Shown here: positions 38,184 through 52,617 of the stretch, piece after piece
How the letters are laid out: each line of letters starts with the position of its first letter
How positions within the stretch are numbered: the first letter of the stretch is position 1
Assembly: GCA_964500125.1 (NCBI GenBank)
Contig: CAZCMV010000003.1
Span: forward strand, 11,523-75,522
Length of the DNA: 64,000 bases
Direction of reading: 5' to 3'
Source of the DNA: an uncultured Bdellovibrionales bacterium
GTDB taxonomy: Bacteria > Patescibacteriota > Minisyncoccia > Moranbacterales > GWC2-37-73
The notes under the pieces: model-generated
What the model was told of the DNA's origin: nothing
Database searches by the model: none
What the model saw: the letters and a program-made list of their open reading frames with translations, nothing else
Made by a program: the position numbers and the translations under genes

Positions 38184-38258
38184 TGGCTCCGCGACCAGGA
38201 CTCGAACCTGGAACCAATTGGTTAACAGCCAACTGCTCTACCATTGAGCTATCGCGGA
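38184..38258 (-). tRNA. tRNA-Asn (anticodon GTT), CCA encoded.
   Basis: Acceptor TCCGCGA/TCGCGGA. D-arm GCTC-AATGGTA-GAGC. Anticodon loop CTGTTAA. T-arm CCAGG-TTCGAGT-CCTGG. 3' GCCA. Confidence 0.8.
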
Positions 38259-38500
38259 ATATGTTTTTTAATAAATTCTCTCCCTCTATAGCTTTTAAGC
38301 TGTTTTTCTCTTGCTAATGCCTCTGATCTTGAATTTACTTTTTCACTATAAATCAGCTCCCACTTTCCATCAAATCTTGAAGTATAACTGTGAGGAAAAC
38401 CTTTGCTATTATGTAGAGCTAGTCTTATTGTCAAATCTTCACATTGACCAATGTAAATCTTATTATGTTTATCATTATAAATGGCATATATATGATACAT
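38249..38500 (-). CDS. GIY-YIG nuclease-domain protein, about 83 aa. Its last 3 codons overlap the tRNA-Asn 5' end.
   Basis: 'MYHIYAIYNDKHNKIYIGQCEDLTIRLALHN' GIY...YIG motif with conserved Arg/Glu downstream. Start set at MYHIY; the track ORF extends 35 codons upstream through the palindrome. Confidence 0.55.
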   Translation of the reverse strand: MYHIYAIYNDKHNKIYIGQCEDLTIRLALHNSKGFPHSYTSRFDGKWELIYSEKVNSRSEALAREKQLKSYRGREFIKKHIPR

Positions 38501-38527
38501 GCCACCATAATAGCAGAACTGCTCTAC

Positions 38528-38543
38528 CTCCGCCAGCTGGCGG
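38528..38543. repeat. 16-bp perfect palindrome TCCGCCAGCTGGCGGA (copy 1; identical copy at about 43547-43562).
   Basis: Exact self-complementarity. Confidence 0.7.
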
Positions 38544-38558
38544 AGAGCTATCGCGGAA
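38544..38558 (-). repeat. 15-bp direct repeat of the tRNA-Asn 5' end (GAGCTATCGCGGAAT). Partner copy at 38246-38260 within the tRNA.
   Basis: Exact 15/15 match, same orientation, about 298 bp apart, bracketing the GIY-YIG gene. Confidence 0.7.
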
Positions 38559-38764
38559 TGTATTTTGTTGTAAAAAATTGCCCTTTCAAGCAACAAAAAC
38601 AGCATATCAAATATTTACATCTTTGGCAAGGGTGGACGAAGAAAAAAATCCTTTTAACATCAACTCCTTACCTCTTTCATGCTATACAGGCACTATGAAA
38701 ACAGAAGTAGAGATTTTGTCCCTATTTTACATTCATTAAGTTGAGGGTCGTTCTAAACCTGATT

Positions 38765-38791
38765 TAGGTTCGAGTCCTACTCGCGGAGCCA
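38765..38791 (+). pseudogene. Pseudo-tRNA: 3' fragment (T-arm, acceptor, CCA) homologous to tRNA-Asn, inverted relative to the intact gene; no 5' half.
   Basis: TAGGTTCGAGTCCTACTCGCGGAGCCA versus tRNA-Asn CAGGTTCGAGTCCTGGTCGCGGAGCCA (24/27). Confidence 0.55.
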
Positions 38792-38797
38792 AATTGC

Positions 38798-38822
38798 AAA
38801 AGAGCCAAATTAAGGCTCTTTT
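38798..38822 (+). terminator. Hairpin terminator (AGAGCC-AAATTAA-GGCTCT, T4) immediately 3' of the pseudo-tRNA fragment.
   Basis: Looks like the original terminator of the lost tRNA copy. Confidence 0.4.
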
Positions 38823-38886
38823 GTGATATTTCGTGGGTTCTAACATACTATGTTCAAACCTGCCAAATAATATTACCCAAAACATA

Positions 38887-39031
38887 AATGTTAAATAAGG
38901 AATAGCTGGCATGATAAATAACGGTTTTTATTATGATAAATAATTGAAAATACTATATCCCATAAAAACGCTTGACTTAGCTATTAATAGGCATATAATG
39001 TTAAATAATGAATATTGTAAATGTTAAATAA
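38887..39031 (+). promoter_or_regulatory. Three direct repeats of (A)TAAATGTTAAATAA at about 38887, 38997 and 39020, the last two overlapping the -10 and leader of the Fic gene promoter.
   Basis: 12/12-nt identical cores. Repeats 2 and 3 are spaced 23 bp apart. Confidence 0.5.
38972..38999 (+). promoter_or_regulatory. Near-consensus sigma70 promoter: TTGACT, 16-nt spacer, TATAAT, 38 nt upstream of the Fic ATG.
   Basis: Both hexamers at most 1 mismatch from consensus. Confidence 0.55.
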
Positions 39032-39036
39032 GTTAT

Positions 39037-40200
39037 ATGTCTATAAAAATTTATGACCCCAAATACGGAAGCAAACTTACTGGTGTAATTTTTGAATTAG
39101 AAAAACTTCGAGTTAAAAAGCTGGGTGGGCCTGTTTCTCCTCATGTTTTTTTTCAAATAAAAGATATTTTTCAGATGCTGGAAAGCTTGGGCTCTGCAAG
39201 AATAGAGGGTAATAATACTACATTAGCGGAATATGTTGAGAAGGTTATTGAAAACAGATCAAAGAAAATTGTTGCCGATGAAAAATTTAAGGAGATTGAA
39301 AATATAGACAAAGCAATTGGTTTCATTGAGAAAAATGTAAATAAGCTAACCAAGTTTGACAGAGCTCTTATTTCTGAGATACATAAAATTCTTGTAGAAG
39401 GACTGACACCTCCTCCTACAGGGGAGGGTTCTTGTTATCCTGGAATGTTGCGATCGATAAATGTAACTATACAAAAATCAAGTCATATTCCTCCGGAAGC
39501 AATAAAAGTTCCAGAGTTATTTGATGAGCTTATGGATTTTGTTAATCAGCCGCTTGATACGCAGTACCATTTGTTGGCTATAGCATTATCTCATCATAAA
39601 ATGGCATGGATACATCCTTTTGATAATGGAAATGGTAGGCTTGTAAGAATGTTTACTTATGCATTTCTTATAAAACAAGGATTTCAGGTAAAAAGTGGAA
39701 GAATATTAAATCCAACCGCAATTTTTTGCATGGATCGAAATAGATACTACGAAATGCTTTCGTTGGCTGATTCCGAAGAAGAAGATAATGTCTTGGAATG
39801 GTGCTCGTATGTTCTCGAGGGGTTGCGTTCCGAAATAGAAAAAATAGATAATCTTCTCGATTTGCAATATATAATTGATGTTATTTTATTGCCTATGCTT
39901 TCATATTCTTTAGAGCGTGAGCACATAACGAAGCGTGAGTATCAGATACTTACTGCTATCGTTAAAAATAGTGAAATGACTATTAAATCTGCAGATCTTG
40001 AAAAAATCCTTGGTGAAGAATCACCCGTGCAGCGTTCTCGGATATTAAAAAAATTAAAGGATAGAGCAATGCTTATATCGCTTAAAGAGAACGGCAGAAT
40101 TTATACCATAGGTTTTGCAAATAACTACTTACTTCGTGGCATAATCCATGTTTTGCGGGAAAATGGATTTATTCCAGGATCATTGGATAGTAAAAATTAG
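39037..40200 (+). CDS. Fic/Doc-family protein (putative AMPylase/toxin-like) with a C-terminal winged-helix-like region.
   Basis: Canonical Fic motif 'HPFDNGNGRLVRM'. 387 aa. Confidence 0.8.
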   Translation: MSIKIYDPKYGSKLTGVIFELEKLRVKKLGGPVSPHVFFQIKDIFQMLESLGSARIEGNNTTLAEYVEKVIENRSKKIVADEKFKEIENIDKAIGFIEKNVNKLTKFDRALISEIHKILVEGLTPPPTGEGSCYPGMLRSINVTIQKSSHIPPEAIKVPELFDELMDFVNQPLDTQYHLLAIALSHHKMAWIHPFDNGNGRLVRMFTYAFLIKQGFQVKSGRILNPTAIFCMDRNRYYEMLSLADSEEEDNVLEWCSYVLEGLRSEIEKIDNLLDLQYIIDVILLPMLSYSLEREHITKREYQILTAIVKNSEMTIKSADLEKILGEESPVQRSRILKKLKDRAMLISLKENGRIYTIGFANNYLLRGIIHVLRENGFIPGSLDSKN

Positions 40201-40255
40201 TTTTGTTGTATTAATGTTCTGAGTTCTTTTATTTATAATTCTTAAGGAGGTAAAT

Positions 40256-40546
40256 ATGGGAACAAAAGGGCATAGGAATGGAGGTAAAATAGGCGGTAGG
40301 CATACTACAGTTTCGGAACATGCCACAAAAGTCGTCGATTTTGCTGAAAAACTTCCGGAGGTGACCCGAATAAGTATCGGGCGTCTGACGGCGGGAATCA
40401 AAAACGCACCGCATTGCATCAAACTGGTAGAAAGATCAGGAGGATTATTGGTTAAAGTTCGTGGTAGCAATACTATTCAAGAGTTCACAATATATTCGAA
40501 TGATGTGAGGAGAACCATTAATGCAATCAAAGAAAATTTTAGTTAA
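40256..40546 (+). CDS. Hypothetical small protein, 96 aa, Gly/Lys/Arg-rich N-terminus.
   Basis: Strong RBS AAGGAGG with 5-nt spacing. A -10 TATAAT about 20 nt upstream. No recognised domain. Confidence 0.55.
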   Translation: MGTKGHRNGGKIGGRHTTVSEHATKVVDFAEKLPEVTRISIGRLTAGIKNAPHCIKLVERSGGLLVKVRGSNTIQEFTIYSNDVRRTINAIKENFS

Positions 40547-40654
40547 AAGTAGAGCACCATTTATTTAAAGTCGTGTGATAAAAGATCATGCGACTTTTTT
40601 GTAATTAAAATAAACACCGCATTTCTTGTTTGAAATGCGGTGTGCGTTTTAGAA

Positions 40655-41212
40655 TTAAAGCTTGCGCCCATTCTTTTCAGCGGTTATTGTCTTCAAATCA
40701 AGATCATCCAACAGAATGAGGCGATGTGCCTTTTCCCGGAGTTCTTTTGACAAAGTTCCTCTTGTGGAAACCACTGTAGTCTTGATGTCGTAGTTATTCG
40801 CCTCGTCAATTAAGTAGGCGAAATCGGAATCGCCGGAAATAAGGATTATTTCCTTGCAATCTCTTCTCCAAATACAACGGCAGATATCCACGGCAATTTC
40901 AACATCGAAATTAGCCTTGTTTTTGTCGCCGTTTTTGGTGCAAATAGTTTTACAATCTTTTGTGATTACTTTAAAACCAATAATTTGCAGGAAATCGTGA
41001 AACTTTTTCAATTTTTGCACTGCTTCAGCATCGCCATTTCTTTTTTCCGTGTAAATGTTTTTTGTGGCTATTTCCGATCCTAGGGTTATGGTGCCGATCA
41101 GTTTTTCAAAGTCAATACGCGTTCCAGAGTTCATGTTGCGGGATTTTTTGATTTGTTCGAGGCCACTATTGATATTTGCCAACTCGATAAAAACTGCTAC
41201 GTTGCTGTTCAT
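40655..41212 (-). CDS. NYN-domain (LabA/DUF88-like) putative ribonuclease.
   Basis: 'VAVFIELANI', 'FDVEIAVD', 'LISGDSDF' acidic NYN/PIN-like motifs. Start set at MNSNVAVF with RBS AGGAGA; the track ORF has 55 extra upstream codons. Confidence 0.6.
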   Translation of the reverse strand: MNSNVAVFIELANINSGLEQIKKSRNMNSGTRIDFEKLIGTITLGSEIATKNIYTEKRNGDAEAVQKLKKFHDFLQIIGFKVITKDCKTICTKNGDKNKANFDVEIAVDICRCIWRRDCKEIILISGDSDFAYLIDEANNYDIKTTVVSTRGTLSKELREKAHRLILLDDLDLKTITAEKNGRKL

Positions 41213-41632
41213 GCAATTTCTCCTTCTGGTGCTGAGACTTTTGGGATAAATACAAAAGGTGCAACAATATCGTGCTACTGAATAATTGCTACAACACCAC
41301 CTCCTTTCAAAGAACATCATTTTAATGTAAATGTTTAATTCAAATATGTCAATATTTCGTGGGCGTAAATATTTCAAACAAATATGTTATAATCAAATAA
41401 CATGTTTGTTAATTTTAAAAATAGAAAATGAATCCTAAGGCAGGCGCTAGTAATGGGAATTTTGCTGTTTAGTGTGGTCGTTGATAAATTTTTGAAATAT
41501 CAAAATGGCCGATAAGAATACGAAAAATGAATGTATGCAAGTAAGAAAGAAAACTTCAATCGGATGGTTCAGGTGTGGCTTGTTCTGGTTTGTGCTGTAA
41601 ATTGGCGCTTTGTAGAATACCAAGTAAATTAA

Positions 41633-43084
41633 ATGGACAAGAAAAAAAATGAAAAAAATAAAATAAAATTCTCAAAATTGTTCCATGTCCATCTTACGCT
41701 TACGGGAACAATTTTTGCTATGTACATAATTTTTTCCTTGGTTTGGTCGCCGGAATTCTTGCTTGCCGATATAAGGAACAAATTCCAAGCGTTGGCTGAC
41801 GAAATAGTTAATATTTCTGCACATGTAGTCGGTCCACCTCAAAAACCTATAGTTTCAGCTAATGCAGTTTGTAACAACGGCAATCTATATGTCAATTTGG
41901 ATTGGGCGGATGATGACGGTTCGGAAAGTTTTGATGTTGAAAGGGATGGAAGCATTTTGGTGGCGGGCATAAATTCTTCCGAGTATAAGGATAGTAATTT
42001 AACAGTGGGAAACATTCATTCCTATGTGGTAACAGCAAGGGGATCAATGGGGCCTGGTTTTGCCGTTTCTGATCCTGTGACAGTGACGACTCCGGCGGAA
42101 TGTAAAGTGGTGTTGCCTCCACCAAGCGTGACAATTACTGGTATAAATAAAGGCAGTGTTAATGGAGTTATGCAAATGATTGCAACTACTTCTCAAACCC
42201 CCGTCATTTACGGCACTACTAATGTAGCGAATGCTTTGGTGGATATAGTTATCAGCGGAAATGTTAATTTTGTTTCGCAAGAGATCGCCAGCAGTAACGG
42301 TTATTGGCAATGGCAGCCGCCAACGAATTTGCCATACGGTGATTATAATATTTTTGTCACTGTGAATGATCCTAATGATTCTGATAGGACAGTAACCGCG
42401 CAATATGCCTTGCGTGTGTCCAAAGAAAAAGAAGAAGAAAAAAACAGCGGCAATAAAAAAGGGGAAAAACCAAAAAGTGTCAGTTCGGAATTAATAAATG
42501 ATCCGCAACAAGAAAGTGAAAATAAGCAAAATGTTAACCAGGAGGAACCAGAAATTCCGCTGACATATAGCCTGTTTTTGGGCAGTGTGGAAGTTTTGCA
42601 AGGAAGGAATCTGAGCGCTTCAATTGTTATTGAAAATGTGGCTGAAAAATTTTTGGGACGTGAAGCAATTGTTAGATATTCAATCTTTGATAGCAAGGGT
42701 AAATTAATCAGTGAAGATTTTACCAGTACTGTTTTGGAAAAAGGCAAAAGAGTTGATAAATATTTGCCTATTTCCAAATCAATGCTTGCAGGTGGATATA
42801 ATTTGAACAGCGAAATAATTTTCAGTGACTATGATGTTAGTCGAAATGCCAGCTTCATGGTGCTTGCTTTACCGGCGGTAAAACTCGGTGGGGGATTTGT
42901 GATTAATTATCAGGATCTGCTGAGTGAAATTGGCACAGTTTCCTTGTGGTTTTTGGTTGTATTGTTTATTTGGCTGGGCATTCTTTCGCGTGAATATTGG
43001 CTTTCCATGAATGCGCTAGATCATATTACAGAAAAAAGTTTGACCAATTTGGGTATGGTGCCGATGCGAAAGAAAAAGCGATAG
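41633..43084 (+). CDS. Cell-surface protein, 483 aa (N-terminal signal/anchor, beta-rich ectodomain, C-terminal TM anchor).
   Basis: Hydrophobic N- and C-terminal segments. Lys/Glu-rich linker 'KEKEEEKNSGNKKGEKPK'. Confidence 0.5.
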   Translation: MDKKKNEKNKIKFSKLFHVHLTLTGTIFAMYIIFSLVWSPEFLLADIRNKFQALADEIVNISAHVVGPPQKPIVSANAVCNNGNLYVNLDWADDDGSESFDVERDGSILVAGINSSEYKDSNLTVGNIHSYVVTARGSMGPGFAVSDPVTVTTPAECKVVLPPPSVTITGINKGSVNGVMQMIATTSQTPVIYGTTNVANALVDIVISGNVNFVSQEIASSNGYWQWQPPTNLPYGDYNIFVTVNDPNDSDRTVTAQYALRVSKEKEEEKNSGNKKGEKPKSVSSELINDPQQESENKQNVNQEEPEIPLTYSLFLGSVEVLQGRNLSASIVIENVAEKFLGREAIVRYSIFDSKGKLISEDFTSTVLEKGKRVDKYLPISKSMLAGGYNLNSEIIFSDYDVSRNASFMVLALPAVKLGGGFVINYQDLLSEIGTVSLWFLVVLFIWLGILSREYWLSMNALDHITEKSLTNLGMVPMRKKKR

Positions 43085-43185
43085 CGTGATATAATTAAAA
43101 TAGTTTTTACAAAGATTATTTTTCAAACTCATGCGATTTACAATCAAGTCGCAATGAGCCGCTATACGCCATGACAAATTTATGC

Positions 43186-43210
43186 AATGAAGCGCTCCGC
43201 TGGCTGGCGG
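43186..43210. repeat. Second copy of the GAAGCGCTCCGCYGGYTGGCGG element (variant palindrome CCGCTGGCTGGCGG). Compare the copy at about 12233-12256.
   Basis: 21/23-nt match between the two copies. Confidence 0.5.
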
Positions 43211-43229
43211 GTAATTATTTTGTAATTTA

Positions 43230-43538
43230 GTGTGTTGTATGGAAAAATATTTTTATCTCGTCAATGCCATCACTATCGCCGCATTATTATTGGCGATTGC
43301 TTATACTGCTGGTATTGTATGGCGCACAGAAAACGAGCTGGACGTGTCGTATAAATTTTTTCTGGCAGGAGTTGTATTTTTATTGATAGCGGAAGTAGCG
43401 GATCTCTACTATGCAATTGATAGGCAAATGATTATTGCGTTGCTTATAAAAATCCTGAAAGCCTTGTTTGCTGTTTGCTTTTTAGTTGGCACGCTTTTCA
43501 TGCGTGACATTATGCGCAAACTTGATGGAGAGAAATGA
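43230..43538 (+). CDS. Small 3-TM membrane protein, about 100 aa.
   Basis: ORF with three hydrophobic helices. Confidence 0.35.
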   Translation: MCCMEKYFYLVNAITIAALLLAIAYTAGIVWRTENELDVSYKFFLAGVVFLLIAEVADLYYAIDRQMIIALLIKILKALFAVCFLVGTLFMRDIMRKLDGEK

Positions 43539-43546
43539 GGTGTAAA

Positions 43547-43562
43547 TCCGCCAGCTGGCGGA
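43547..43562. repeat. 16-bp palindrome TCCGCCAGCTGGCGGA (copy 2), 9 nt after the preceding stop codon.
   Basis: Identical to the copy at about 38528-38543. Confidence 0.7.
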
Positions 43563-43601
43563 CAAAATATAAAATACAACAAAGGAAATACAAAAGGCTT
43601 T

Positions 43602-44318
43602 ATGGCTAAGTATCATTTGAAAAATATATTTGCAGCAATTTCAATCGTCGCATGTGTGTTTGCGGCCTCTTTTGCTCAAGCTGATATGAGCAGCTCCAGT
43701 TATTCCATCAGCGCTGACGCAATCAACATCGGGGGAGGCAGACAAGTTTCTGAAGAATATGTGGAGCAAAATATGTTGGGCGAAGTCGGTACTGGCGGTT
43801 TGCGCAGTTCGACGTATATCATGGATGCCGGTTTCTTGGCGATGGTTGGCAATGAGGAGATACTTACTTTTGAGATGACCAAAAACACAGCAGATCTGGG
43901 CACATTGGTCAGTAACTTGGTCAAAGCGGATACGGCAACTTTTCGTGCTGCTACCACAGCCAAAAGCGGTTATGCAATTTCCGTATATGGCAATTCGCTT
44001 TCTTCAGTTTCACACACTATTGAGCCGCTTTCCAGCGCCTCCAGTTCTTCCACAGGCAATGAACAATTCGGTTTTAATTTGAGGCAAAACAACAATCCCA
44101 CAATAGGAAGTGATCCCAGTGGGGGAAATGGGCAGGCAGCAATGGGATATTCAACTACGGATGCATATAAATTCACTTCTGGCGATATCATTGCCGAGTC
44201 CTCTAATCAGTCAACATATACTAATTACACTGCATCCTTCATTGGCAATATCAGTAATATCAGTGATGCAGGAGAATATGCTACAAGTCTTACGATCGCG
44301 GTAACTGGCAGGTTCTAA
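43602..44318 (+). CDS. Secreted beta-rich surface protein, paralogue A (WxL-domain-like C-terminus ending ...GEYATSLTIAVTGRF).
   Basis: Signal peptide. Ser/Thr/Gly/Asn-rich. C-terminal motif shared with the next gene. Confidence 0.5.
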   Translation: MAKYHLKNIFAAISIVACVFAASFAQADMSSSSYSISADAINIGGGRQVSEEYVEQNMLGEVGTGGLRSSTYIMDAGFLAMVGNEEILTFEMTKNTADLGTLVSNLVKADTATFRAATTAKSGYAISVYGNSLSSVSHTIEPLSSASSSSTGNEQFGFNLRQNNNPTIGSDPSGGNGQAAMGYSTTDAYKFTSGDIIAESSNQSTYTNYTASFIGNISNISDAGEYATSLTIAVTGRF

Positions 44319-44414
44319 AAATGGATAAGTAGCCATAGGGGATTTGACAAAAGTATGTTATTATACACATGGAAGGAAAGATGCTTTTGAAAAGTAAAAT
44401 AAAAATATAAACAT

Positions 44415-45497
44415 ATGCAAAAAAATGAATTTAAAGTGAAATATGTTTTGCTAGTTTGTAGAGATTTGTTAACACTTTTGTTGTTAGTTTGTATTATTGT
44501 GCCAGCTTTTAATGTCAAGGCAGCATCAATGCCTGCTCGTGATTACATGAATCGAAACACTGCTAATCTCACAACTGGCGTAACGCATGAAATAATTTTT
44601 ACTCCAGCAACAATGACCTCAGGAAGCTTGATATTGATATTTCCTGATGCTGATGATGGATTATGGTGTCGCACCGCAGGTTCTTTAGCTACCGCAACAA
44701 CTTCGCTTCATGATTCTGCAACAGCTCTTCCTGGGACACTTTCGGCAAGCTGTACGCAAGGTTCTGGAGCCTCAAATTATGACACTATAACCATAACGGG
44801 CATGGGAAGTATAACCGGTGGTTCAACATATGGAGTTAGAATTTCCGGAAATACTGGAGCACTGGGAACAACAAGTTCAGCAACAACTTCAATTGTTACA
44901 GTTAAGACAAACAATGGTAGCGATGTTGACTCCAGAAATATCGCTCTTGTTACTGTGGCTAATGATCAGATAAGCATCACTGGAAAAGTTGATCCGACTT
45001 TTACTTTTGGTATAACTGACACTCAAATCGGTTTTGGTACTATCACTTCTGCCGCTTTGCGTCACGCCACAGCTGATGAAGTCGGCGCCGCTTCCGCTCC
45101 GGAAAATGGTGCGCCAACCACAATTTCAGCTTCAACAAATGCGCAGTCGGGCCTTGTTATTGAGGTGAGAGATCAGAATGCAGCAGCCGGAAGCGGTATG
45201 TATAATTCCAGCCCGGAAACTACTTTGACTTCTCGCGCCAGTACAGCGGTTTCCGCAGGTACAATTGGTTTTGGTGTATATGGAAAAAATGCTTCCAATA
45301 TAACTTTAGATGAAGGTTTTGATCATGATTCCGATTCTGATTTGGCAATCAGCACTTCTTTTCAGACGATAGCTTCCGCTGCTGCGCCAGTATCTTCAGC
45401 ATCTTTTGACTTGGCTGCGGTATCGGCTGTGGCTGCTTCCACGGCGCCTGGTGATTATGCCGATACTTTGACGCTGGTGGCAACTGGAAGATTCTGA
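44415..45497 (+). CDS. Secreted beta-rich surface protein, paralogue B (ends ...GDYADTLTLVATGRF).
   Basis: Signal peptide. Thr/Ser/Ala/Gly-rich. Same C-terminal G-[DE]-Y-A-x-[ST]-L-T-[IL]-x-[AV]-T-G-R-F motif as paralogue A. Confidence 0.5.
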   Translation: MQKNEFKVKYVLLVCRDLLTLLLLVCIIVPAFNVKAASMPARDYMNRNTANLTTGVTHEIIFTPATMTSGSLILIFPDADDGLWCRTAGSLATATTSLHDSATALPGTLSASCTQGSGASNYDTITITGMGSITGGSTYGVRISGNTGALGTTSSATTSIVTVKTNNGSDVDSRNIALVTVANDQISITGKVDPTFTFGITDTQIGFGTITSAALRHATADEVGAASAPENGAPTTISASTNAQSGLVIEVRDQNAAAGSGMYNSSPETTLTSRASTAVSAGTIGFGVYGKNASNITLDEGFDHDSDSDLAISTSFQTIASAAAPVSSASFDLAAVSAVAASTAPGDYADTLTLVATGRF

Positions 45498-45528
45498 ATA
45501 ATTGAAATGGGGGTATAAAATAGTTTAT

Positions 45529-46518
45529 ATGAAAAATTATTTCGCATTTACCGCTAGTATCATTATTTTTGCCAGCATTCTTCTTGGCGTGCGCGATGCG
45601 CACGCTCTTACTGTTTCTCCGCCGGTCAAAGAATTAGCCGGCGATCCTGGTTCGGTCGTGCAGTATGTTGTTAAGCTTTATAACGAAACCAGGGATGCAG
45701 TGACTGTGAAAGCAACAGCAACTAATTTCACTGCCAAGGAAAATGGCGCGGGCGAGCCTCAGTTTGCAGATTTAGGAACCGAAAGAGAAGCGACGCATGA
45801 CCTTGCCTCTTGGATGTCTGTGCCCGAGGGTTTGATTACAATTAATCCGCTTGATTGGCAAACTGTCATCATTAATATTAATATCCCTAAGGACGCTGAA
45901 CCGGGCGGGCACTATGCAGCCGCATTTTTTACGCCGAATAAAATCGAAAACACCGGTAAAGATGGCGTAAGTGTGGATTATAAAACAGGATCCCTGGCAT
46001 TGCTTACTGTTACGGGTGAAGCCAGGCAAGGTGGCAATGTCAAAAGTTTTACTCTTAGAGGCGACAAATCTTTTTATGAATATGTCCCAGTAAACATGGA
46101 ACTGCGCGTGGAAAACACAGGCAACGTGCATTTTAAACCGGGTGGCATGGTGGAAATTAAAAATATTTTCAACAAAAAAGCTGGCGAAATTGCCGTAACG
46201 GATTCTGATTCCGGTGGCAATGTCTTGCCGAATAGTACTCGCAGATATGATTTGACCTGGGAAAAACAAGAAGACAAAAATGGTCCGCAAGATTTTTGGT
46301 CTAAAGTGCAATATGAATTCAAACATTTTCGCTGTGGACGCTATGTCGCTACTGCTTCTGTGGACTTGCCACAGGGTCAAGCTGCTCCACATACTCTTTC
46401 TTTTTGGATTATTCCGTGGCAACTGTTGTTGGTAGTTATTATAGGTCTTACTTTATTGATTCTCTTATTTAGAACGTATAATCGCTGGATAATCAAGAAG
46501 GCAAAAAATGGTTGCTAA
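45529..46518 (+). CDS. Surface protein with signal peptide and C-terminal TM anchor plus short basic tail (DUF916/DUF3324-like, CscA-like architecture).
   Basis: 'ALTVSPPVKELAGDPGS' after the signal. C-terminal 'FWIIPWQLLLVVIIGLTLLILLFRTYNRW'. Start set at MKNYF; the track ORF starts at TTG 27 nt upstream. Confidence 0.45.
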   Translation: MKNYFAFTASIIIFASILLGVRDAHALTVSPPVKELAGDPGSVVQYVVKLYNETRDAVTVKATATNFTAKENGAGEPQFADLGTEREATHDLASWMSVPEGLITINPLDWQTVIININIPKDAEPGGHYAAAFFTPNKIENTGKDGVSVDYKTGSLALLTVTGEARQGGNVKSFTLRGDKSFYEYVPVNMELRVENTGNVHFKPGGMVEIKNIFNKKAGEIAVTDSDSGGNVLPNSTRRYDLTWEKQEDKNGPQDFWSKVQYEFKHFRCGRYVATASVDLPQGQAAPHTLSFWIIPWQLLLVVIIGLTLLILLFRTYNRWIIKKAKNGC

Positions 46519-46582
46519 AGTTTTTAAGTTGCAAAATCCAAAAAACATATAAATTTCTTGTCAATATTATTTCGTTCCCTAA

Positions 46583-46606
46583 AGCTCCCATCCAGGGGAG
46601 CTTTTC
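46583..46606 (+). terminator. Intrinsic terminator after the anchored surface-protein gene.
   Basis: AGCTCCC-ATCCAG-GGGAGCT then TTTT. Confidence 0.5.
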
Positions 46607-46612
46607 AATTAA

Positions 46613-46641
46613 TTGACTTTAGGCAAAAAAACTGCTATAAT
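46613..46641 (+). promoter_or_regulatory. Consensus sigma70 promoter: TTGACT, 17-nt spacer, TATAAT.
   Basis: Perfect -10, 5/6 -35, optimal spacing. Confidence 0.6.
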
Positions 46642-46664
46642 AGATGTATATAGAAGTGGAGGAA

Positions 46665-46686
46665 AACGGGTGAAAGCCCGTTTTTT
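46665..46686 (+). promoter_or_regulatory. Leader hairpin plus U-tract (AACGGG-TGAAAG-CCCGTT-TTTTTT) in the 5' UTR of the 957-aa gene. Paralogous copy upstream of the gene at 60159.
   Basis: Terminator-like structure roughly 20 nt downstream of the promoter and roughly 25 nt before the ATG. Confidence 0.5.
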
Positions 46687-46712
46687 ATCTATTTCAGGTC
46701 AAAAATTTAGGC

Positions 46713-49586
46713 ATGCGCATCAAAATTCATACAAAAACAAAATCCGTAACTAGGGGGCTACGAGTAGGAGAGCTACTCTTTTTTGTGGCCATTTTTTCAT
46801 CTTTATTCCTGGGAACTTCTTCGGCAAAAGCTGCTTTCAATGAAAGCATCAACTATCAAGGCAAGTTGACTGATGGAAATGCAATTCCTGTATCTGACGG
46901 GGCATACGACATTGTTTTTAAGCTTTATGATGCGGCTGCGGGTGGCTCAACAGTCTGGAATGAATCTTTGACTAGTTCCAATCTTTGGACTGAGACGGTG
47001 AGTACGACAATAACGCGCAACGCTGCAGGTTGTGGAGGCAGTGGCTTCACTAGTATCGTTTATGCTACGGGAACTAACGAGGCATCTATTGCTATTGGAC
47101 AGACGATTTGGAACACTACTTTGAAAGAATCAGCAGTGGTTACAGACATAACAACTGGCACTAATACGCTTTGTGTTTCTAATCCCTATTCTTCTTGGGC
47201 TAATTCGGATGATCTTACTAATCGGGTGTATATTAAAAGCGGACTTTTTTCGGTGATGTTGGGAAAGTATGAAAGTCTTTCTTCTGTGGACTTCAATCAA
47301 ACTCTTTATCTTGGTGTGTTAGTCGGAAACGATTCGGAAATGGTGCCTCGCAAGATGATTGGAGCCGTTCCGGCTGCTTTTACGGCCAAAACACTTAATA
47401 ATAACGGAAGCGCTGCGATTGCTACAAATGATGGCGCCACTTTGAATATCGGTAATACCACGGGAGCTGTTACAATGAATTCAGGCGGCGTTTCTGCATG
47501 GACAAATACGGCTGGAAATTTGACCATTTCTACAGCAACTTCCGGAATATTAACCTTAAATTCGGCAGGATCGCTTGATTTGACTGGCGCTTCAGCTTCC
47601 AGTTTTGCCACTACGGCAGGCAATATTACTTTGCAATCAGCCGGCTCAAGTACTGTTGGTACCGTGCAAATTGGTGCTGGGGGAGTTGGTTCTATTACGC
47701 CTGATTTTTTTGGTTTAGACGTGAAATCAGACACCGGTGATCCCGCTGGTGGTTTCGAAGGTGCTATGTATTATAATACTTTCGATAATAAGTTTAGATG
47801 TTATCAAAACGCTGGTTGGACCGATTGCATCAGCGCTGGCGGAAGCACTACATTGCAAAATTCCTATGATCAGACAAATGGGAACACAATTGTTTCTACT
47901 TCAGGAAAAAACATAGCGCTTACGCTTGAAGAAGTTGACACGCCAACCTCATTTGCGATTGAAAATCAAGACACTTCTGGAATCAATGCAGAATATATAA
48001 ATAATTCAATCACTTCGGGAACATTGGCAAATGCGCTTACAATTGACAATACAGGTGCTGGTACTATTACTAATGCGATTAATATTTTAGAAACAGCTGG
48101 AACAATAACGACGGGGATTAATATTGGTAATAATGTAGGAACGGGAATTTCCATCGGGACTGGCGCGACCACAGGTATTTTTGTTGGTTCAGGTGGTGTT
48201 ACGATTGCTGCCGGTGCATTGAATGTCAATTCTGATGAAATTATTTCAGATGGTTCTACGCTTACTATAAATGCCGGAGGAATAGTCGATATTCAAGATA
48301 TTCTAAATGCAGATTCAATCACTTCTGATGCGGGTGTCTCCATTGCTTCTGGTGGAAGTTATACAGGCGCTGGTGCAGTAACACTTTCTTCAGCTTCTGC
48401 TTCGGCACTTACGATTGATTCGGGAACAACAGGAAATCTCGATATAGGCACCGGGGCAAATGCTAAAATAATTACGCTTGGAAATTCCACTGGTGCTACC
48501 GTGGTCAATATAAATTCCGGCACTGGCGGCATTAGCTTTCAGGCAGCAGGAACCGGAACAACAGATACTATCCAAATTGGTGAAGGGGGAAGTGGTTCTT
48601 CAACGCCTGATATTTTAGCACTTGATGTGAAATCTGATTCTGGAGATCCGGTAGGTTTTGAAGGAGCGATGTACTATAACAACAATATTAATAAGTTTCG
48701 ATGTTACCAAGATACAGCATGGACGGACTGTATCGGTGCAGGGGGCGGTAGTGGTGGTGATAATATAAGTATTAATGGAACTTCCATAACTGATGCTGAT
48801 TTTGACAATGTTACCCCGGCTTCTCCCATGGGAGGAGTAAATATGAAATGGCAAAGAGATTCTTCTACGCCTAATAATGTAAGCGCTTATTTTGATTTTG
48901 CAGATTATGATGGAGCTTTTAAGAAAAAGCCGACCTATGCATCTGATTTTATTTCCGGAACAGCAGTAGCTTATAATCTGCCATTTGTTGGGGCGGGTAT
49001 TTCTTCCGGAACAGTAACTGCTCCTTTGGCAGCGGCTATTGATAGTGATCACCCTGGTATTATGCGCTTACGTTCAAATACAACTGCCAATGGAGGGTAT
49101 CGCTATCAAGCTTATGCGGACTCAATTCGTTTTAAGGGCGGAGAAATATTTAATGCAGTTTTATATCATGAAAATATTGATACGACGATCGTAAGAATGG
49201 GATTTAATGACAATACAACTTACGCTGATGCGGTTGATGGTTGTTATTTTGAAGTTCCAACAACCGGAGTTGTAATTGGAAAATGTTCCAATGATTCAAC
49301 GAGAACGTCAACAACAGGAAGTTATACGATTTCAACTGGTACGTGGTATTCATATAGGGTCACTTTGAACTCTGATGCCACATTGGCGACGTTTGAAATT
49401 TTTGATAGTAACGGAAATTCTCTTTGGACAAGCAATAATACCGTTTCGTCCAATATACCGACTGCAGCTGGCAGAGAAACAACTGCGGGCATAATCGCTA
49501 CCGAGTCCTCAACTACGGCAACGTATATGGTTGATTTGGATTATATGAGTTTCAGTTTAGGAACCGCAAGCCCATTGGCGCGTTAG
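46713..49586 (+). CDS. Large secreted Gly/Thr/Ser-rich surface protein, 957 aa, with internal repeats.
   Basis: Signal peptide. Repeated about 40-aa module 'LDVKSD(T/S)GDP..GFEGAMYYN...NKFRCYQ...WTDCI' twice (about aa 330-375 and 640-680). C-terminal roughly 250-aa beta-rich domain. Confidence 0.6.
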   Translation: MRIKIHTKTKSVTRGLRVGELLFFVAIFSSLFLGTSSAKAAFNESINYQGKLTDGNAIPVSDGAYDIVFKLYDAAAGGSTVWNESLTSSNLWTETVSTTITRNAAGCGGSGFTSIVYATGTNEASIAIGQTIWNTTLKESAVVTDITTGTNTLCVSNPYSSWANSDDLTNRVYIKSGLFSVMLGKYESLSSVDFNQTLYLGVLVGNDSEMVPRKMIGAVPAAFTAKTLNNNGSAAIATNDGATLNIGNTTGAVTMNSGGVSAWTNTAGNLTISTATSGILTLNSAGSLDLTGASASSFATTAGNITLQSAGSSTVGTVQIGAGGVGSITPDFFGLDVKSDTGDPAGGFEGAMYYNTFDNKFRCYQNAGWTDCISAGGSTTLQNSYDQTNGNTIVSTSGKNIALTLEEVDTPTSFAIENQDTSGINAEYINNSITSGTLANALTIDNTGAGTITNAINILETAGTITTGINIGNNVGTGISIGTGATTGIFVGSGGVTIAAGALNVNSDEIISDGSTLTINAGGIVDIQDILNADSITSDAGVSIASGGSYTGAGAVTLSSASASALTIDSGTTGNLDIGTGANAKIITLGNSTGATVVNINSGTGGISFQAAGTGTTDTIQIGEGGSGSSTPDILALDVKSDSGDPVGFEGAMYYNNNINKFRCYQDTAWTDCIGAGGGSGGDNISINGTSITDADFDNVTPASPMGGVNMKWQRDSSTPNNVSAYFDFADYDGAFKKKPTYASDFISGTAVAYNLPFVGAGISSGTVTAPLAAAIDSDHPGIMRLRSNTTANGGYRYQAYADSIRFKGGEIFNAVLYHENIDTTIVRMGFNDNTTYADAVDGCYFEVPTTGVVIGKCSNDSTRTSTTGSYTISTGTWYSYRVTLNSDATLATFEIFDSNGNSLWTSNNTVSSNIPTAAGRETTAGIIATESSTTATYMVDLDYMSFSLGTASPLAR

Positions 49587-49631
49587 ATTTATGAAAAATA
49601 TTATCGAAAAGTGCAAAATAACTAGAAAAAT

Positions 49632-50405
49632 ATGAAAAAAAAAGATTTTTTTAAAAAATTTTTTGTCAAATTGATTTTTATTGCAAGCATTCCTTTTTCG
49701 GCAAATGCTTTTGATGGCATATCTTTTGAAAAAAATATTCTAAAAGCTTCCGGTTCTTGCGACTCAAATATTGTGTTGCAACTTTTTGCCGATGAATCTT
49801 TGGAAAAGTCAATCTATTCCGCCGGAGTGGTCTGCAAGGACGAAAAATATTATTTTTCTGACGATCTTTCCAAGTGGAATGTTCCGGAAGGAGAATATGC
49901 CATAGTTATTGATGGGGAAAAAACAAATGTACAAAGCATTGAAATAAAATATGAAAAACAGTTATTATCCAATGCAACGGTCAATCAAACGAATAAGCAG
50001 GAGGAGAAGAAAAATAAGCAGTCGGAAGTGAAGCAGAAAGAAAAATCGGCTGACGTGAAATTTCTTGAAGCGTTTGCTTCTTTTCAACAGTCGATTTTGG
50101 ATATGCACTCATGGCTTTCGAAGACAGAATATCCATCTTGGATAAAGGAGGGAATTGACTTTACCCTGAATGGCATTGATGAATTAGTTGTTAAAATAAG
50201 TGAGACGTTGTTTTCGGCGGATAGCTCGCAAAATGAGACAAGCGACATTGAACAGGAGACGAACGATACAGAACAGGAAACAGGGGACGTGGGACAAGAG
50301 ATGGAAAATGTGCAACAGGAAAAAGGCGATACAGGACAAAATGTGGGCAACATGGGACAAAATGCGGACGAAACGCAGCAAGCAGATAATGAACAGATTC
50401 AATAA
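49632..50405 (+). CDS. Secreted protein with acidic Gln/Glu-rich C-terminal repeats.
   Basis: Signal peptide. 'ETSDIEQETNDTEQETGDVGQEMENVQQEKGDTGQNVGNMGQNADETQQ'. Confidence 0.5.
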   Translation: MKKKDFFKKFFVKLIFIASIPFSANAFDGISFEKNILKASGSCDSNIVLQLFADESLEKSIYSAGVVCKDEKYYFSDDLSKWNVPEGEYAIVIDGEKTNVQSIEIKYEKQLLSNATVNQTNKQEEKKNKQSEVKQKEKSADVKFLEAFASFQQSILDMHSWLSKTEYPSWIKEGIDFTLNGIDELVVKISETLFSADSSQNETSDIEQETNDTEQETGDVGQEMENVQQEKGDTGQNVGNMGQNADETQQADNEQIQ

Positions 50406-50433
50406 ATAATTAACTAAAGCAAACAAGCAAAAA

Positions 50434-50458
50434 CTGCCAGATGCGCGGCAGTTTTTTT
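50434..50458 (+). terminator. Intrinsic terminator.
   Basis: CTGCC-AGATGCGC-GGCAG then T7. Confidence 0.55.
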
Positions 50459-50509
50459 GTTTTGCTTTTTGTTGTATAATTGATTTGTAAAATAAAATTA
50501 CAAAAACAT

Positions 50510-51361
50510 ATGAGTTTCTGGGAAAAATTAAAAGAACAAAATGAAAAAAAGAAGGAGATCTTAATTGATTTGCCAGAGCATGGCACGAAAGACGAAATAA
50601 CAAAGAAGAATAAATCGGCAAAAAAAACAGTTTTGAATGTGGCAATGATTGTCGTTATGCTTGGTTCACTTGCAGCTGCGGGTTATTTTTATTACCAATA
50701 TCGCAACATGAAGTTGGCGAAAAATACGCCAGCGCAAGAACAGAGTGAGGTTAGTCAGTTGGTAGCAAAAATTTCTCAATTTATGGAATTGCCGCAAGAA
50801 GAAACACCCGTTTTGGCAACAGTTTCAGACAAAAGCAAGCTGAATAGTCAACCTTTTTTCACTAAAGCGGAAAATGGTGATAAAATTTTGGTCTACAATA
50901 ATGCGGGACAGGCTATTCTTTATCGTCCTTCAACAGGCAAGATTATTAATGTGTCACAAGCAACTTTGGAAAGTCAAAATGAGCAAGCACAGCAGCAAGC
51001 CGTTGCGTCTCAGGAGGAGCCAGTCAATGGGCAATCTGCGGAAGCCAAAGTCGCAGGTGAGGAAACCGATGCACGTTCTGGGAATGTCGTCGCTCTATAT
51101 AATGGTACCAATAAAAAAGGCGTTACTTATGCTTTTGAGAAATACTTGACCAAAGAAATAGCTGACATTACGGTGGGTATTAAAGAATCAGCAGTAAAAC
51201 AGGATTATGCTAAAACGGTAGTGATTGATCTAAAAGGCGATAATGGGTATGTGGCAAAGTCTATTGCGGATAAAATTTCTGCCGAAGTTGGTTCTCTTCC
51301 GCAAGGCGAGACCTCTCCTGATGCTGATATTTTGATTATTTTGGGCAGTGATAGATTGTAG
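50510..51361 (+). CDS. Membrane-anchored LytR_C (LytR/CpsA/Psr C-terminal) domain protein.
   Basis: N-terminal TM; C-terminal 'NVVALYNGTNKKGVTYAFEKYL...VVIDLKGDNGYVAKSIADKI' resembles the LytR_C domain. Start set at MSFWEK; a -10 TATAAT lies about 30 nt upstream. Confidence 0.5.
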   Translation: MSFWEKLKEQNEKKKEILIDLPEHGTKDEITKKNKSAKKTVLNVAMIVVMLGSLAAAGYFYYQYRNMKLAKNTPAQEQSEVSQLVAKISQFMELPQEETPVLATVSDKSKLNSQPFFTKAENGDKILVYNNAGQAILYRPSTGKIINVSQATLESQNEQAQQQAVASQEEPVNGQSAEAKVAGEETDARSGNVVALYNGTNKKGVTYAFEKYLTKEIADITVGIKESAVKQDYAKTVVIDLKGDNGYVAKSIADKISAEVGSLPQGETSPDADILIILGSDRL

Positions 51362-51462
51362 CTGATTGTGGCAAGGTTTGTATCTAGCGGACCGTTCGTG
51401 TCAAGCGGACAGTCCGCTTTGCAATATAGCTTTCTTTTAGGCGTACTAAGTTAGTAGAGCTT

Positions 51463-52617
51463 ATGCAAAAAACTATAAACACCTTTCTTGCGTTTTTCAT
51501 AATTGCAGCCGCCTCTTTGGAGGTGGGTCTTTTTACTGTGCGGCAGGTACGTGACTTGAAATTTCCTGGTCCTGTTATGCCAACAATGTTAAAAAAAAGT
51601 CATAAAATTCCGGAAAAATTTGGCAAAGTAGAGCGTCCAAAGCCGGCTGCAGTTTCTATGGCTCGTTTTAAAAAACAGGGATGTGTGGCGGACGGGCTGC
51701 TTTCGGAATATAATCCGGACACTGAGAAATATATAGAAATGGTAAATCGTTCAAATTGCTATTATTTGCATCGGGCGGTTGAAACATGGCTCACTCCACC
51801 GGATTTTCAGACCATTGACTATGTGATGAATAATATTACCAAAAAGGATGTGGTTTACGGCATGTTTATTGCGGAAGCGCTCAAGACCAATGCTGACTAT
51901 TTTAATGAATACACAAAGGAATATTTTAACTTCAGAACAATGTGTCGCGAGGGCAGCAAGAATGTTTGGGGTGAACATTCCTGCAAGCCGACTTTCGGCA
52001 GTGCGGCTTATCGCGAATATCTTGAATATATTACGCACAAGGCAATTGATTTGGGCGTGCAGAGCTTTATGTTCGGGCAGATATATATGCAAGAGGGTGG
52101 AGACAATGATTATGCCAAAAAAATCATCAAGGACATGCGCGACTATGCCAAAAAGAAAGGGGTTGATATTGTGATTGGCGCGCAAACCGGAGCAATAACC
52201 GATCAAGAATACCTTTCACTTTTTGATTATATCGAAGGGGGAGTGGGACTTTATCCGGATGGCACGGTGGAAGAAGGAGCATGCCTTTCTTGGCGCGGTG
52301 GCTGTTGGGCATTGCTCTGGCACGATAATTACGCTTCCAAGGCAGATCATGTATTGTTGCATTTGGATTGGACTGGTATCAAAAGCGATGACCTGGATGT
52401 TTTTGCGCGTATGGATCAGCAAAAACGCGCCGAGACTTTGCGAAACTTATATAACAAATTTACTTCTCAAAATATGGGCTTTTTGATGCCACTGTTTGGC
52501 GTGCTCGACAAAGAAAACGGCGGTTGTTATGGTCCCAAGAAGCGTTTCTATTCTGCTGATAAGGCGTACGGTTGCAAGGATGAAGATGTGATCAACAAAA
52601 TACTCATTGGAAAATAA
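51463..52617 (+). CDS. Hypothetical secreted/anchored protein, 384 aa, Cys-containing; slightly GC-richer than its neighbours.
   Basis: N-terminal hydrophobic segment; no recognised motif. Confidence 0.45.
   Translation: MQKTINTFLAFFIIAAASLEVGLFTVRQVRDLKFPGPVMPTMLKKSHKIPEKFGKVERPKPAAVSMARFKKQGCVADGLLSEYNPDTEKYIEMVNRSNCYYLHRAVETWLTPPDFQTIDYVMNNITKKDVVYGMFIAEALKTNADYFNEYTKEYFNFRTMCREGSKNVWGEHSCKPTFGSAAYREYLEYITHKAIDLGVQSFMFGQIYMQEGGDNDYAKKIIKDMRDYAKKKGVDIVIGAQTGAITDQEYLSLFDYIEGGVGLYPDGTVEEGACLSWRGGCWALLWHDNYASKADHVLLHLDWTGIKSDDLDVFARMDQQKRAETLRNLYNKFTSQNMGFLMPLFGVLDKENGGCYGPKKRFYSADKAYGCKDEDVINKILIGK

Follow-up and report, generated by a model that had tools for sequence, protein, structure and literature searches.

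Do the genes beside a tRNA-Asn gene in an uncultured bacterium of the Patescibacteriota form one functional module, or have they come to lie together independently? The question concerns positions 38887-41212 of a 64,000-nucleotide stretch of DNA (contig CAZCMV010000003.1, assembly GCA_964500125.1; below, the window), in which a gene of the Fic family, a gene for a 96-aa protein and a convergent gene for a NYN nuclease follow one another. An initial annotation of this stretch proposed that the three genes form a toxin-antitoxin or defence module, acquired horizontally next to a disrupted tRNA. Our comparison with related loci speaks against such a module: the Fic protein is predicted to be of class II with a helix-turn-helix (HTH) domain of its own, the gene for the 96-aa protein is unlinked to fic elsewhere, and the NYN gene lies past a breakpoint of homology. 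As judged from homology, the locus appears to consist of three unrelated single-gene units. The explanation that we favor, and consider probable, is that the first of these is a self-contained mobile cassette, whose Fic protein would control both its own activity and its own promoter.

The fic gene (39037-40200, + strand) encodes a 387-aa protein assigned to the class II Fic-HTH proteins of the CccR family by Pfam, PDB, BLASTP and PADLOC matches and by the positions of its motifs. The presence of a Fic gene with the HPFDNGNGR motif, noticed in the initial annotation, was confirmed: the product contains the Fic domain (PF02661; 58.9 bits against the cut-off of 24, E 9.5e-16), and the Fic motif HPFDNGNGRLVR corresponds to H193PFDNGNGRLVR204 (residues 193-204, coordinates 39613-39648). 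The acidic position of the motif HxFx(D/E)GNGRxxR is occupied by Asn, as it is in CccR. The same annotation pointed to the inhibitory motif (S/T)xxxE(G/N) as a sign of autoinhibition, and this motif is present within the Fic protein itself. The stretch S53ARIEG58 (39193-39210) is the sole N-terminal match to it and aligns with S59ARIEG of CccR. Both SARIEGN and HPFxNGNGR, with Asn at motif position 5, are invariant in nine of the nine aligned family members. With the inhibitory helix in the same chain and N-terminal to the Fic motif, the protein falls by its sequence into class II.

The C-terminal part of the protein (approximately residues 280-380, ~39874-40176, + strand) is predicted to form a winged HTH domain, as follows from the alignment to PDB entry 7xux and from a match of the PADLOC AbiEi winged-HTH model to residues 297-366 (E 1.3e-4). 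The entry 7XUX is CccR of Yersinia pseudotuberculosis (YPK_0951; PMC9755527). Its match to the window protein extends over residues 4-380 against 10-378, the HTH region included (E 6e-97), and BLASTP aligned the two proteins over the full length with 45% identity (E 4e-109). Among the nine aligned proteins, all those of the clade whose genes are preceded by the repeats described below have QRSRI as the putative recognition helix; the corresponding residues are QITYQ in CccR, which has AGATAATCAT in its operator, and QRTYQ in a Pasteurella plasmid homologue, which has AGATAAT repeats upstream. The PADLOC model of SoFic also matches the window protein (E 2.6e-41, residues 44-356).

The family is large and spread over many candidate phyla, with more than 3178 clusters at E < 1e-80. 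The nearest relatives come from Patescibacteria-type metagenome-assembled genomes (MAGs), and the named ones belong mostly to Patescibacteria. Members with ~70% identity were found in Liptonbacteria, Moraniibacteriota, Falkowbacteria, Magasanikbacteria, Paceibacterota, a MAG labelled Nanoarchaeia, and Nitrotoga, and the family also occurs on plasmids in Pasteurella and Photobacterium. A phage origin of the gene was considered and rejected, as neither IMG/VR nor GenBank phages contained a close relative.

The fic gene is preceded, as the initial annotation had it, by a sigma-70-type promoter, TTGACT and TATAAT with a 16-nt spacer (38972-38999, + strand). It agrees with the consensus at 11 of 12 positions, no better match being present in the region, and the hexamers are kept in the orthologous loci. 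Three copies of a 14-nt repeat had been reported around this promoter. These sites are real (38885, 38995 with two mismatches, and 39018), but at up to two mismatches the 14-mer is at chance level, with four copies found against 3.09 expected. The 11-nt core ATGWTAAATAA is present in five exact copies, two of which had been missed, starting at 38888, 38911, 38933, 38998 and 39021, all on the + strand. The expected number is 0.33, none of 100 shuffled sequences reached five copies, and no further exact copy occurs in the 64 kb; with one mismatch allowed, 15 sites were found against 9.3 expected, which adds background only. Three distal boxes, ATGTTAAATAA (38888), ATGATAAATAA (38911) and ATGATAAATAA (38933), occupy 38888-38943 with a spacing of 23 and 22 bp. 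Two proximal boxes, both ATGTTAAATAA (38998 and 39021), occupy 38998-39031 and are 23 bp apart; the first overlaps the -10 hexamer, and the second sits in the leader at the usual place of a Shine-Dalgarno (SD) sequence. The nearest upstream box lies 65 bp 5' of the one overlapping the -10 hexamer. A 15-nt inverted repeat (38984-38998 / 39033-39047, 87% complementary, arms 34 nt apart) encloses the two proximal boxes and covers the start codon of fic. Relatives preserve this repeat only in part, and the likely transcription start falls downstream of its left arm.

To follow the boxes beyond the window, Fic orthologue loci were gathered from metagenomes, genomes and assemblies, making 20 loci in all (L001, L002, etc.), Fic-less ones included. 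Fic protein identity to the window is 97% in L003, 90% in L004 and L008, 87% in L020, 73% in L005, 71% in L006 and L007, 64% in L009, and 70-75% in L017-L019. An ATGWTAAATAA box was found upstream of fic, on the coding strand, in every orthologue examined, and among the 20 loci every exact box lies 5' of a Fic gene and in the same orientation as that gene. The window, L003 and L008 have boxes at -149, -126, -104, -39 and -16 relative to the ATG, although no alignment of L008 with the window is possible for the DNA 5' of the -35 hexamer. L004 and L005-L007 keep a core trio, made up of the box that overlaps the -10 hexamer, one ~65 bp upstream of it and one 23 bp downstream; related arrangements are present in L009 (labelled Gracilibacteria), L017 (the locus labelled Nanoarchaeia), L018 and L019, and core boxes are also conserved in L020. 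In L018 and L019 the fic gene, with its own promoter and boxes, is located inside a type I restriction-modification (R-M) operon. The only gene common to all box-bearing loci is fic itself. The spacing of 22-23 bp corresponds to ~75-78 Å of B-DNA, which comes close to the distance of 70 Å between the two HTH domains of the CccR dimer. Given the exclusivity of the boxes, their preserved geometry, Fic as the sole common gene and the invariant QRSRI helix, the boxes are most likely operators for the HTH domain of Fic. The operator layout suggested in the initial annotation thus agrees with the box positions over the -10 hexamer and leader and with the conservation of this geometry, while the description of the repeats as iteron-like had to be dropped: the region contains no rep gene, and the position of the boxes is tied to that of the promoter at every locus examined.

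Another factor could be the true ligand of the boxes, either a recombinase of the cassette, for which they would be arm-type sites, or a global regulator of the host. Direct repeats beside a tRNA fragment resembling an attachment (att) site at the cassette end are a typical arrangement of recombinase arm sites, and CccR binds inverted rather than direct repeats. However, the boxes stand at set distances from the -10 hexamer and the ATG even where no tRNA or att-like sequence is nearby, as in L008 and in the R-M operons of L018 and L019, and no recombinase travels with them. A host regulator would be expected to have more sites, yet no exact box was found at other promoters in the window or in the Fic-less loci. 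We therefore regard a different ligand as unlikely, and binding by the Fic protein remains our preferred explanation of the boxes.

Taken together with the features of the protein, this leads to the following model. The SARIEG helix would keep the H193PFDNGNGRLVR active site auto-inhibited, and the C-terminal winged HTH would bind the ATG(T/A)TAAATAA boxes at the -10 hexamer and in the leader, repressing the strong promoter of its own gene; the upstream boxes possibly provide for cooperative binding or looping. By analogy with CccR, autorepression would keep the level of a potentially toxic enzyme low. A trigger, plausibly phage infection, would lift the inhibition and lead to AMPylation of a cellular target and growth arrest. 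With the inhibitory helix and the HTH domain both in one chain, Fic would do without an additional antitoxin or regulator. The cassette would have landed between the tRNA-Asn gene and a resident gene of the DUF2103 family, encoding the 96-aa protein, which would ride on the fic transcript.

The mobility of the Fic unit is seen from its boundaries. By BLASTN, the locus breaks at 40228-40232 and 40598 into three distinct blocks of homology. The block 38765-40228, the Fic cassette, matches L004; the block 40232-40598, containing the DUF2103 gene with its SD sequence and terminator, matches the Fic-less loci L001 and L002; to the right of 40598, the BLASTN homology with L001 and L003 ends. The cassette (~38765-40228) thus comprises a 3' fragment of tRNA-Asn, a hairpin, the boxed promoter and fic. 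Its GC content is 0.333, compared with 0.39 for the window. The fragment at its left end (38767-38791, + strand), recovered by fuzzy search, includes the T-arm, acceptor and CCA, and 23 of its 25 nt are identical to the tRNA of the window. A hybrid att origin of the fragment was considered, its T-stem being L004-like and its acceptor window-like, and was set aside, the fragment being too short for a decision. The hairpin AAAAGAGCC-N7-GGCTCTTTT (38798-38822, + strand), read from the sequence, is conserved in L003 and L004. The terminator scan did not report it; in form it resembles a terminator, and it could shield the Fic promoter from transcription arriving from upstream.

Where the window has just the 25-nt 3' fragment, L004 has an intact tRNA-Asn gene (+ strand), and the homology with L004 starts at 38765. 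The cassette in L004 ends with a repeat of the tRNA 3' end matching at 20 of 25 positions (copies at 160-184 and 1657-1681). In L008, fic is located between homologues of the window genes 7-2211 and 3443-4663, and the contexts in L009 and L020 differ again; altogether, Fic genes of this family were found in more than ten different, unrelated contexts. The window and L003 share 97% identity in Fic, against 87-88% in the proteins on either side. Sequence comparison thus gives good support to a horizontal mobility of the Fic unit. The horizontal acquisition proposed in the initial annotation holds for the fic gene, which is mobile, linked to a tRNA fragment and low in GC, but not for the DUF2103 and NYN genes together with it.

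Some of the other Fic loci have surroundings of their own. In L006 and L007, fic and a Zn-ribbon gene form a cassette enclosed by 90-bp direct repeats of a mazG-like 5' end (L006 2075-2164 / 3776-3865, 94% identical); in L006, the truncated mazG-like copy is upstream, and the intact gene, itself split by a short palindromic insert, is downstream. In L017 (112-5501), the locus of the Nanoarchaeia-labelled MAG, the neighbors of the boxed fic gene (73% protein identity) encode PRiA4_ORF3, Bro-N, Pyr_excise and PIF1-helicase proteins, surroundings that look like a mobile or viral-like element.

Several points weigh against the model or its parts. First, the boxes are direct repeats, whereas the operator of CccR is an inverted repeat with a 26-bp spacer, so that the same binding mode would not be expected from a two-fold symmetric dimer; the box over the -10 hexamer could, moreover, be kept partly for being promoter. 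Second, no SD sequence is visible in front of fic. Third, an integrase or recombinase domain was detected in none of the six open reading frames (ORFs) between 36344 and 43084 that were scanned with Pfam, and a fuzzy search of the window did not find a second att copy; the tRNA 3' end is present once on the + strand, at 38767-38791, and otherwise in the intact tRNA gene on the - strand. Fourth, the Fic protein scores 37.5 bits with the NCBIfam equivalog ProtAdlyltaseSoFic, for which the cut-off is 550, and thus should be viewed as a relative of SoFic, not an orthologue. Finally, the evidence for a role in defence consists of the match to the SoFic model and the two orthologues inside type I R-M operons; we put forward a defence or abortive-infection function of the cassette as a tentative suggestion, which we consider somewhat less likely than not. 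These points notwithstanding, we hold to the self-contained, probably autoregulated Fic cassette as the best account of the architecture.

The second unit is the gene for the 96-aa protein (40256-40546, + strand). The strong SD sequence noted initially (AAGGAGG) is indeed present, but the statement that the product has no known domain needs correction. The protein itself scores 16.2 bits with PF09876 (DUF2103), under the cut-off of 22.4, but 63 of its 73 aligned relatives match this family, the best with E 1.2e-12; it is probably a divergent DUF2103 protein. A word-indexed search yielded just three close homologues, while a full HMMER scan collected a coherent family of 373 representatives of 90-115 aa; the named DUF2103 relatives are mostly from Patescibacteria. 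The AlphaFold (AF2) model has an alpha-beta4-alpha fold with a predicted local distance difference test (pLDDT) score of 90.4. His16 is invariant in the family, and Lys11, Lys56 and Gln75 are nearly so. A sequence search of the PDB with this protein gave nothing, and its profile-search matches to HmvA (E 0.029) and eL38 (E ~0.5-1) were judged spurious, the model being alpha-beta4-alpha. The only mention of DUF2103 function that was found in the literature comes from a study in which a DUF2103-like domain is proposed as the effector domain of Menshen NsnC and DUF2103 is linked to type III CRISPR loci (PMC12065111).

The adjacency of the two genes invites the alternative that Fic and the DUF2103 protein work as a pair, either as toxin and modulator or in defence, in which the 96-aa protein would neutralize or assist Fic. 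The genes are on the same strand with a gap of 55 nt, the promoter and terminator scan was blank between them, the second gene has its strong SD sequence, and an intrinsic terminator detected by the terminator scan (40567-40597, + strand) closes the unit; DUF2103 is probably co-transcribed with fic in the window by read-through from the fic promoter. The pair recurs with the same spacing in L003 and L014, and precedents for such a function could be seen in the 47-aa antitoxin gene of EcSofic (PMC12249575) and in the effector role proposed for the Menshen domain. However, the order fic-DUF2103 is limited to the window lineage (the window, L003 and L014), where the junction is common and points to one evolutionary event. 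DUF2103 occurs without Fic in six loci: in L001 and L002 it lies beside tRNA-Asn behind a promoter-like site of its own, which is located 5' of the homology breakpoint and is absent from the window, and in the four genomes represented by L010-L013 its neighborhoods are variable, two of them being between dnaJ and dnaK. Conversely, the Fic genes of L004, L008, L009, L017 and L020 have no small same-strand gene downstream, and those of L005-L007, L018 and L019 are followed by an unrelated Zn-ribbon gene. The 96-aa protein does not contain the (S/T)xxxE(G/N) motif, the nearest stretch being T17TVSEH with His replacing Gly/Asn, and Fic already has an inhibitory helix. The GC content of the DUF2103 gene is 0.412, compared with 0.333 for the cassette. 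A functional pair is thus improbable. The simplest reading is that the Fic cassette was inserted between tRNA-Asn and a pre-existing DUF2103 gene and replaced the promoter region of the latter, which would explain why DUF2103 is now probably read through from the fic promoter.

A recurrent candidate for a partner or antitoxin of this Fic family is the Zn-ribbon protein. Its gene recurs after fic in five loci (L005-L007, L018 and L019) and is not found in the window; in L006 and L007 it is an additional gene of the cassette, coding for 64 aa. The protein has a weak match to the Pfam family Lar_restr_allev (E 9e-5). The pair of Fic (70-75% identity to the window) and a Zn-ribbon protein of 61-64 aa was observed at L018 3001-4384, L019 3001-4386, L006 2267-3679 and L005 1365-2776, and in L018 and L019 it is positioned between hsdS and hsdR of the type I R-M operon.

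The third unit is the convergent NYN/LabA-like gene, which was correctly recognized from the start. It is a monocistronic gene (40655-41212, - strand) for a 185-aa protein with the NYN domain (PF01936; 84.5 bits against the cut-off of 24.2, E 1.3e-23, model positions 1-144 of 145), a match to the PADLOC NYN model (E 4.4e-13) and the motif SGDSDF. Its intrinsic terminator (40614-40643, - strand) was found by the terminator scan and has a weak, hairpin-only Rfam match. The gene lies beyond the breakpoint at 40598 and has no counterpart at this place in L003 or L001; the only contigs in which it was found (L014 and L015) have the same arrangement as the window.

Was the whole set nevertheless acquired jointly, as a defence island integrated at tRNA-Asn? 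All three genes are near tRNA-Asn and its fragments, both Fic and NYN match PADLOC models, and the DNA to the right of 40598 varies among close relatives. On the other side, the locus consists of three homology blocks, NYN is confined to the window lineage, and the GC contents of the NYN gene (0.394) and the DUF2103 gene are host-like; the scanned ORFs contain no integrase or recombinase, and the window has no second att repeat. Joint acquisition is, in our view, very improbable, and the NYN gene is better read as an independent neighbor in a plastic region, outside any Fic module. This region (40599-51603) contains NYN, a 483-aa Big_13 membrane protein, several proteins of 238-360 aa and one of 957 aa; its place is taken in the close relative L003 by 8.6 kb of unrelated genes, encoding FeeM-like, S-adenosylmethionine (AdoMet) decarboxylase, two-component system, ABC, YdjM and TerC proteins, which fill the stretch from DUF2103 to the homologue of the window gene 51463-52617.

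The tRNA-Asn locus itself is a recombination hot spot filled with single-gene units. The tRNA gene is not disrupted, as had been supposed: ARAGORN and Rfam (73.4 bits) identify an intact tRNA-Asn(GTT) at 38184-38258 (- strand). What is present in addition are two separate fragments, the 3' fragment at the cassette end (+ strand) and a decayed copy of tRNA-Asn nt 1-~28 (38517-38557, - strand), recognized by sequence, with a 16-nt palindrome TCCGCCAGCTGGCGGA (38529-38544) inserted in its D-loop. A transfer-messenger RNA, an intron or another RNA at 38600-38800 was also considered, and both Rfam (E up to 1) and ARAGORN gave the intact tRNA only. Between the intact gene and the decayed copy lies an 83-aa GIY-YIG ORF (38249-38500, - strand; Pfam E 7.1e-13; GC 0.306), which we list as a separate small cassette. 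Its TAG stop codon coincides with nt 8-10 of the intact tRNA-Asn. The decayed copy is directly downstream of the tRNA promoter region common to L001 and L003, and the homology on the left of the Fic cassette extends over 38561-38632 to L001 and over 38545-38787 to L003. The order 5' of the intact tRNA, on its strand, is therefore the shared promoter region, the decayed copy with the palindrome, and the GIY-YIG ORF. This looks like a small cassette that inserted in the tRNA gene and brought a replacement 5' end.

Other loci show further insertions at tRNA genes. In L003, a 1.6-kb insert (269-1885) with a NUDIX gene and a gene for a 251-aa protein is situated exactly inside the + strand tRNA-Asn 3' fragment, between TCGCGGA and GAGCCA, which suggests that this fragment has repeatedly been used as an insertion site. 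In L001 (8478-9106) and L002 (3167-3795), the anticodon loop of tRNA-Asn(GTT) is split by a group I intron (RF00028, 80 bits) containing a 126-aa ORF without a Pfam match, and a gene for a 545-aa large serine recombinase abuts the tRNA-Asn 3' end. In L006, a second small GIY-YIG ORF occurs right after tRNA-Gln, with ~58-nt tandem repeats before it (1086-1188 and 1263-1523); small GIY-YIG genes beside tRNA genes may thus be a recurrent pattern in these genomes.

Three cases share a layout in which an inserted unit carries a replacement for the end of its target: the tRNA-Asn 3' end in L004, the mazG-like 5' end in L006 and the tRNA-Asn 5' end at the GIY-YIG ORF in the window. One may speculate that the Fic-HTH and GIY-YIG units are integrase-less single-gene cassettes that insert into conserved genes and carry the replacement end with them, the insertion in the window having placed DUF2103 under Fic-HTH control; we give this generalization a low probability. 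If it were true, replacement-end cassettes would explain the spread of Fic proteins at ~70% identity over Patescibacteria-type MAGs, a MAG labelled Nanoarchaeia and a proteobacterium, and in the window fic and the effector-like DUF2103 gene would have become a new module of two genes.

The analysis places a very abundant but unnamed "Fic family protein" of uncultured small-genome bacteria (over 3000 clusters) in the CccR type, and the ATGWTAAATAA boxes at fixed positions provide a concrete operator candidate. The core design of the family appears to be a toxin and an autorepressor in one chain, traveling with its own operators, and it extends to lineages beyond those in which the role of CccR as a secreted effector has been demonstrated. 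Class II Fic-HTH proteins of the CccR/SoFic type are known; the direct-repeat operator array that travels with the gene, and the integrase-less cassettes flanked by duplicated ends of target genes, are modestly new. The adjacency of the three genes in the window results, as it seems, from the insertion of a cassette at a tRNA-Asn locus prone to recombination, which calls for caution in treating neighboring small genes or nucleases as partners.

Among the known systems, class I Fic pairs such as VbhT-VbhA and FicT-FicA combine a Fic toxin with a small adjacent gene, in general under autoregulated promoters. In those pairs the inhibitory helix is on the small antitoxin, whereas in the window it is in Fic, at residues 53-58. 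Type I R-M operons, too, are known to harbor effector genes, PrrC in EcoprrI being one of them. The L018 and L019 orthologues, being located between hsdS and hsdR, resemble such embedded effectors; the window copy is outside any R-M operon. With tRNA-integrated genomic islets and cis-mobilisable elements, the cassette shares its start with a 3' fragment of tRNA-Asn and, in L004, its closure by a repeat of the tRNA 3' end. Unlike such islets, it is only ~1.5 kb long, has one gene and no integrase, the single att-like copy in the window is inverted relative to the intact tRNA-Asn, and the duplicated target in L006 is the 5' end of a mazG-like gene.

The systems of SoFic (Shewanella SO_4266, PDB 3EQX) and EcSofic-AS1 (E. 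coli H397) resemble the window in having a class II Fic protein with a C-terminal domain, encoded in mobile or defence DNA. SoFic is only a distant relative of the window protein (PDB match E ~4e-5, residues 159-262). In EcSofic, the downstream 47-aa gene AS1 acts as the antitoxin (PMC12249575); the downstream gene in the window differs in that it encodes a 96-aa DUF2103 protein and is not conserved beside Fic.

The closest counterpart is CccR, a class II protein with the inhibitory helix S59ARIEG, the non-canonical motif HPFGNGNGRTVR and His192-dependent AMPylation activity, whose C-terminal HTH represses its own promoter via AGATAATCAT-N26-ATGATAATCT near the -35 and -10 hexamers (PMC9755527). 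CccR is secreted by the type VI secretion system, is imported via FhuA and AMPylates FtsZ at Thr8 (PMC9755527). The inverted repeat of CccR is replaced in the window by five direct ATGWTAAATAA boxes at distances of 22-23 and 65 bp, and the recognition helix is QRSRI instead of QITYQ. Common to both are the SARIEG helix, the HPFxNGNGRxxR motif, the C-terminal HTH domain and the repeats near the hexamers of the gene's own promoter.

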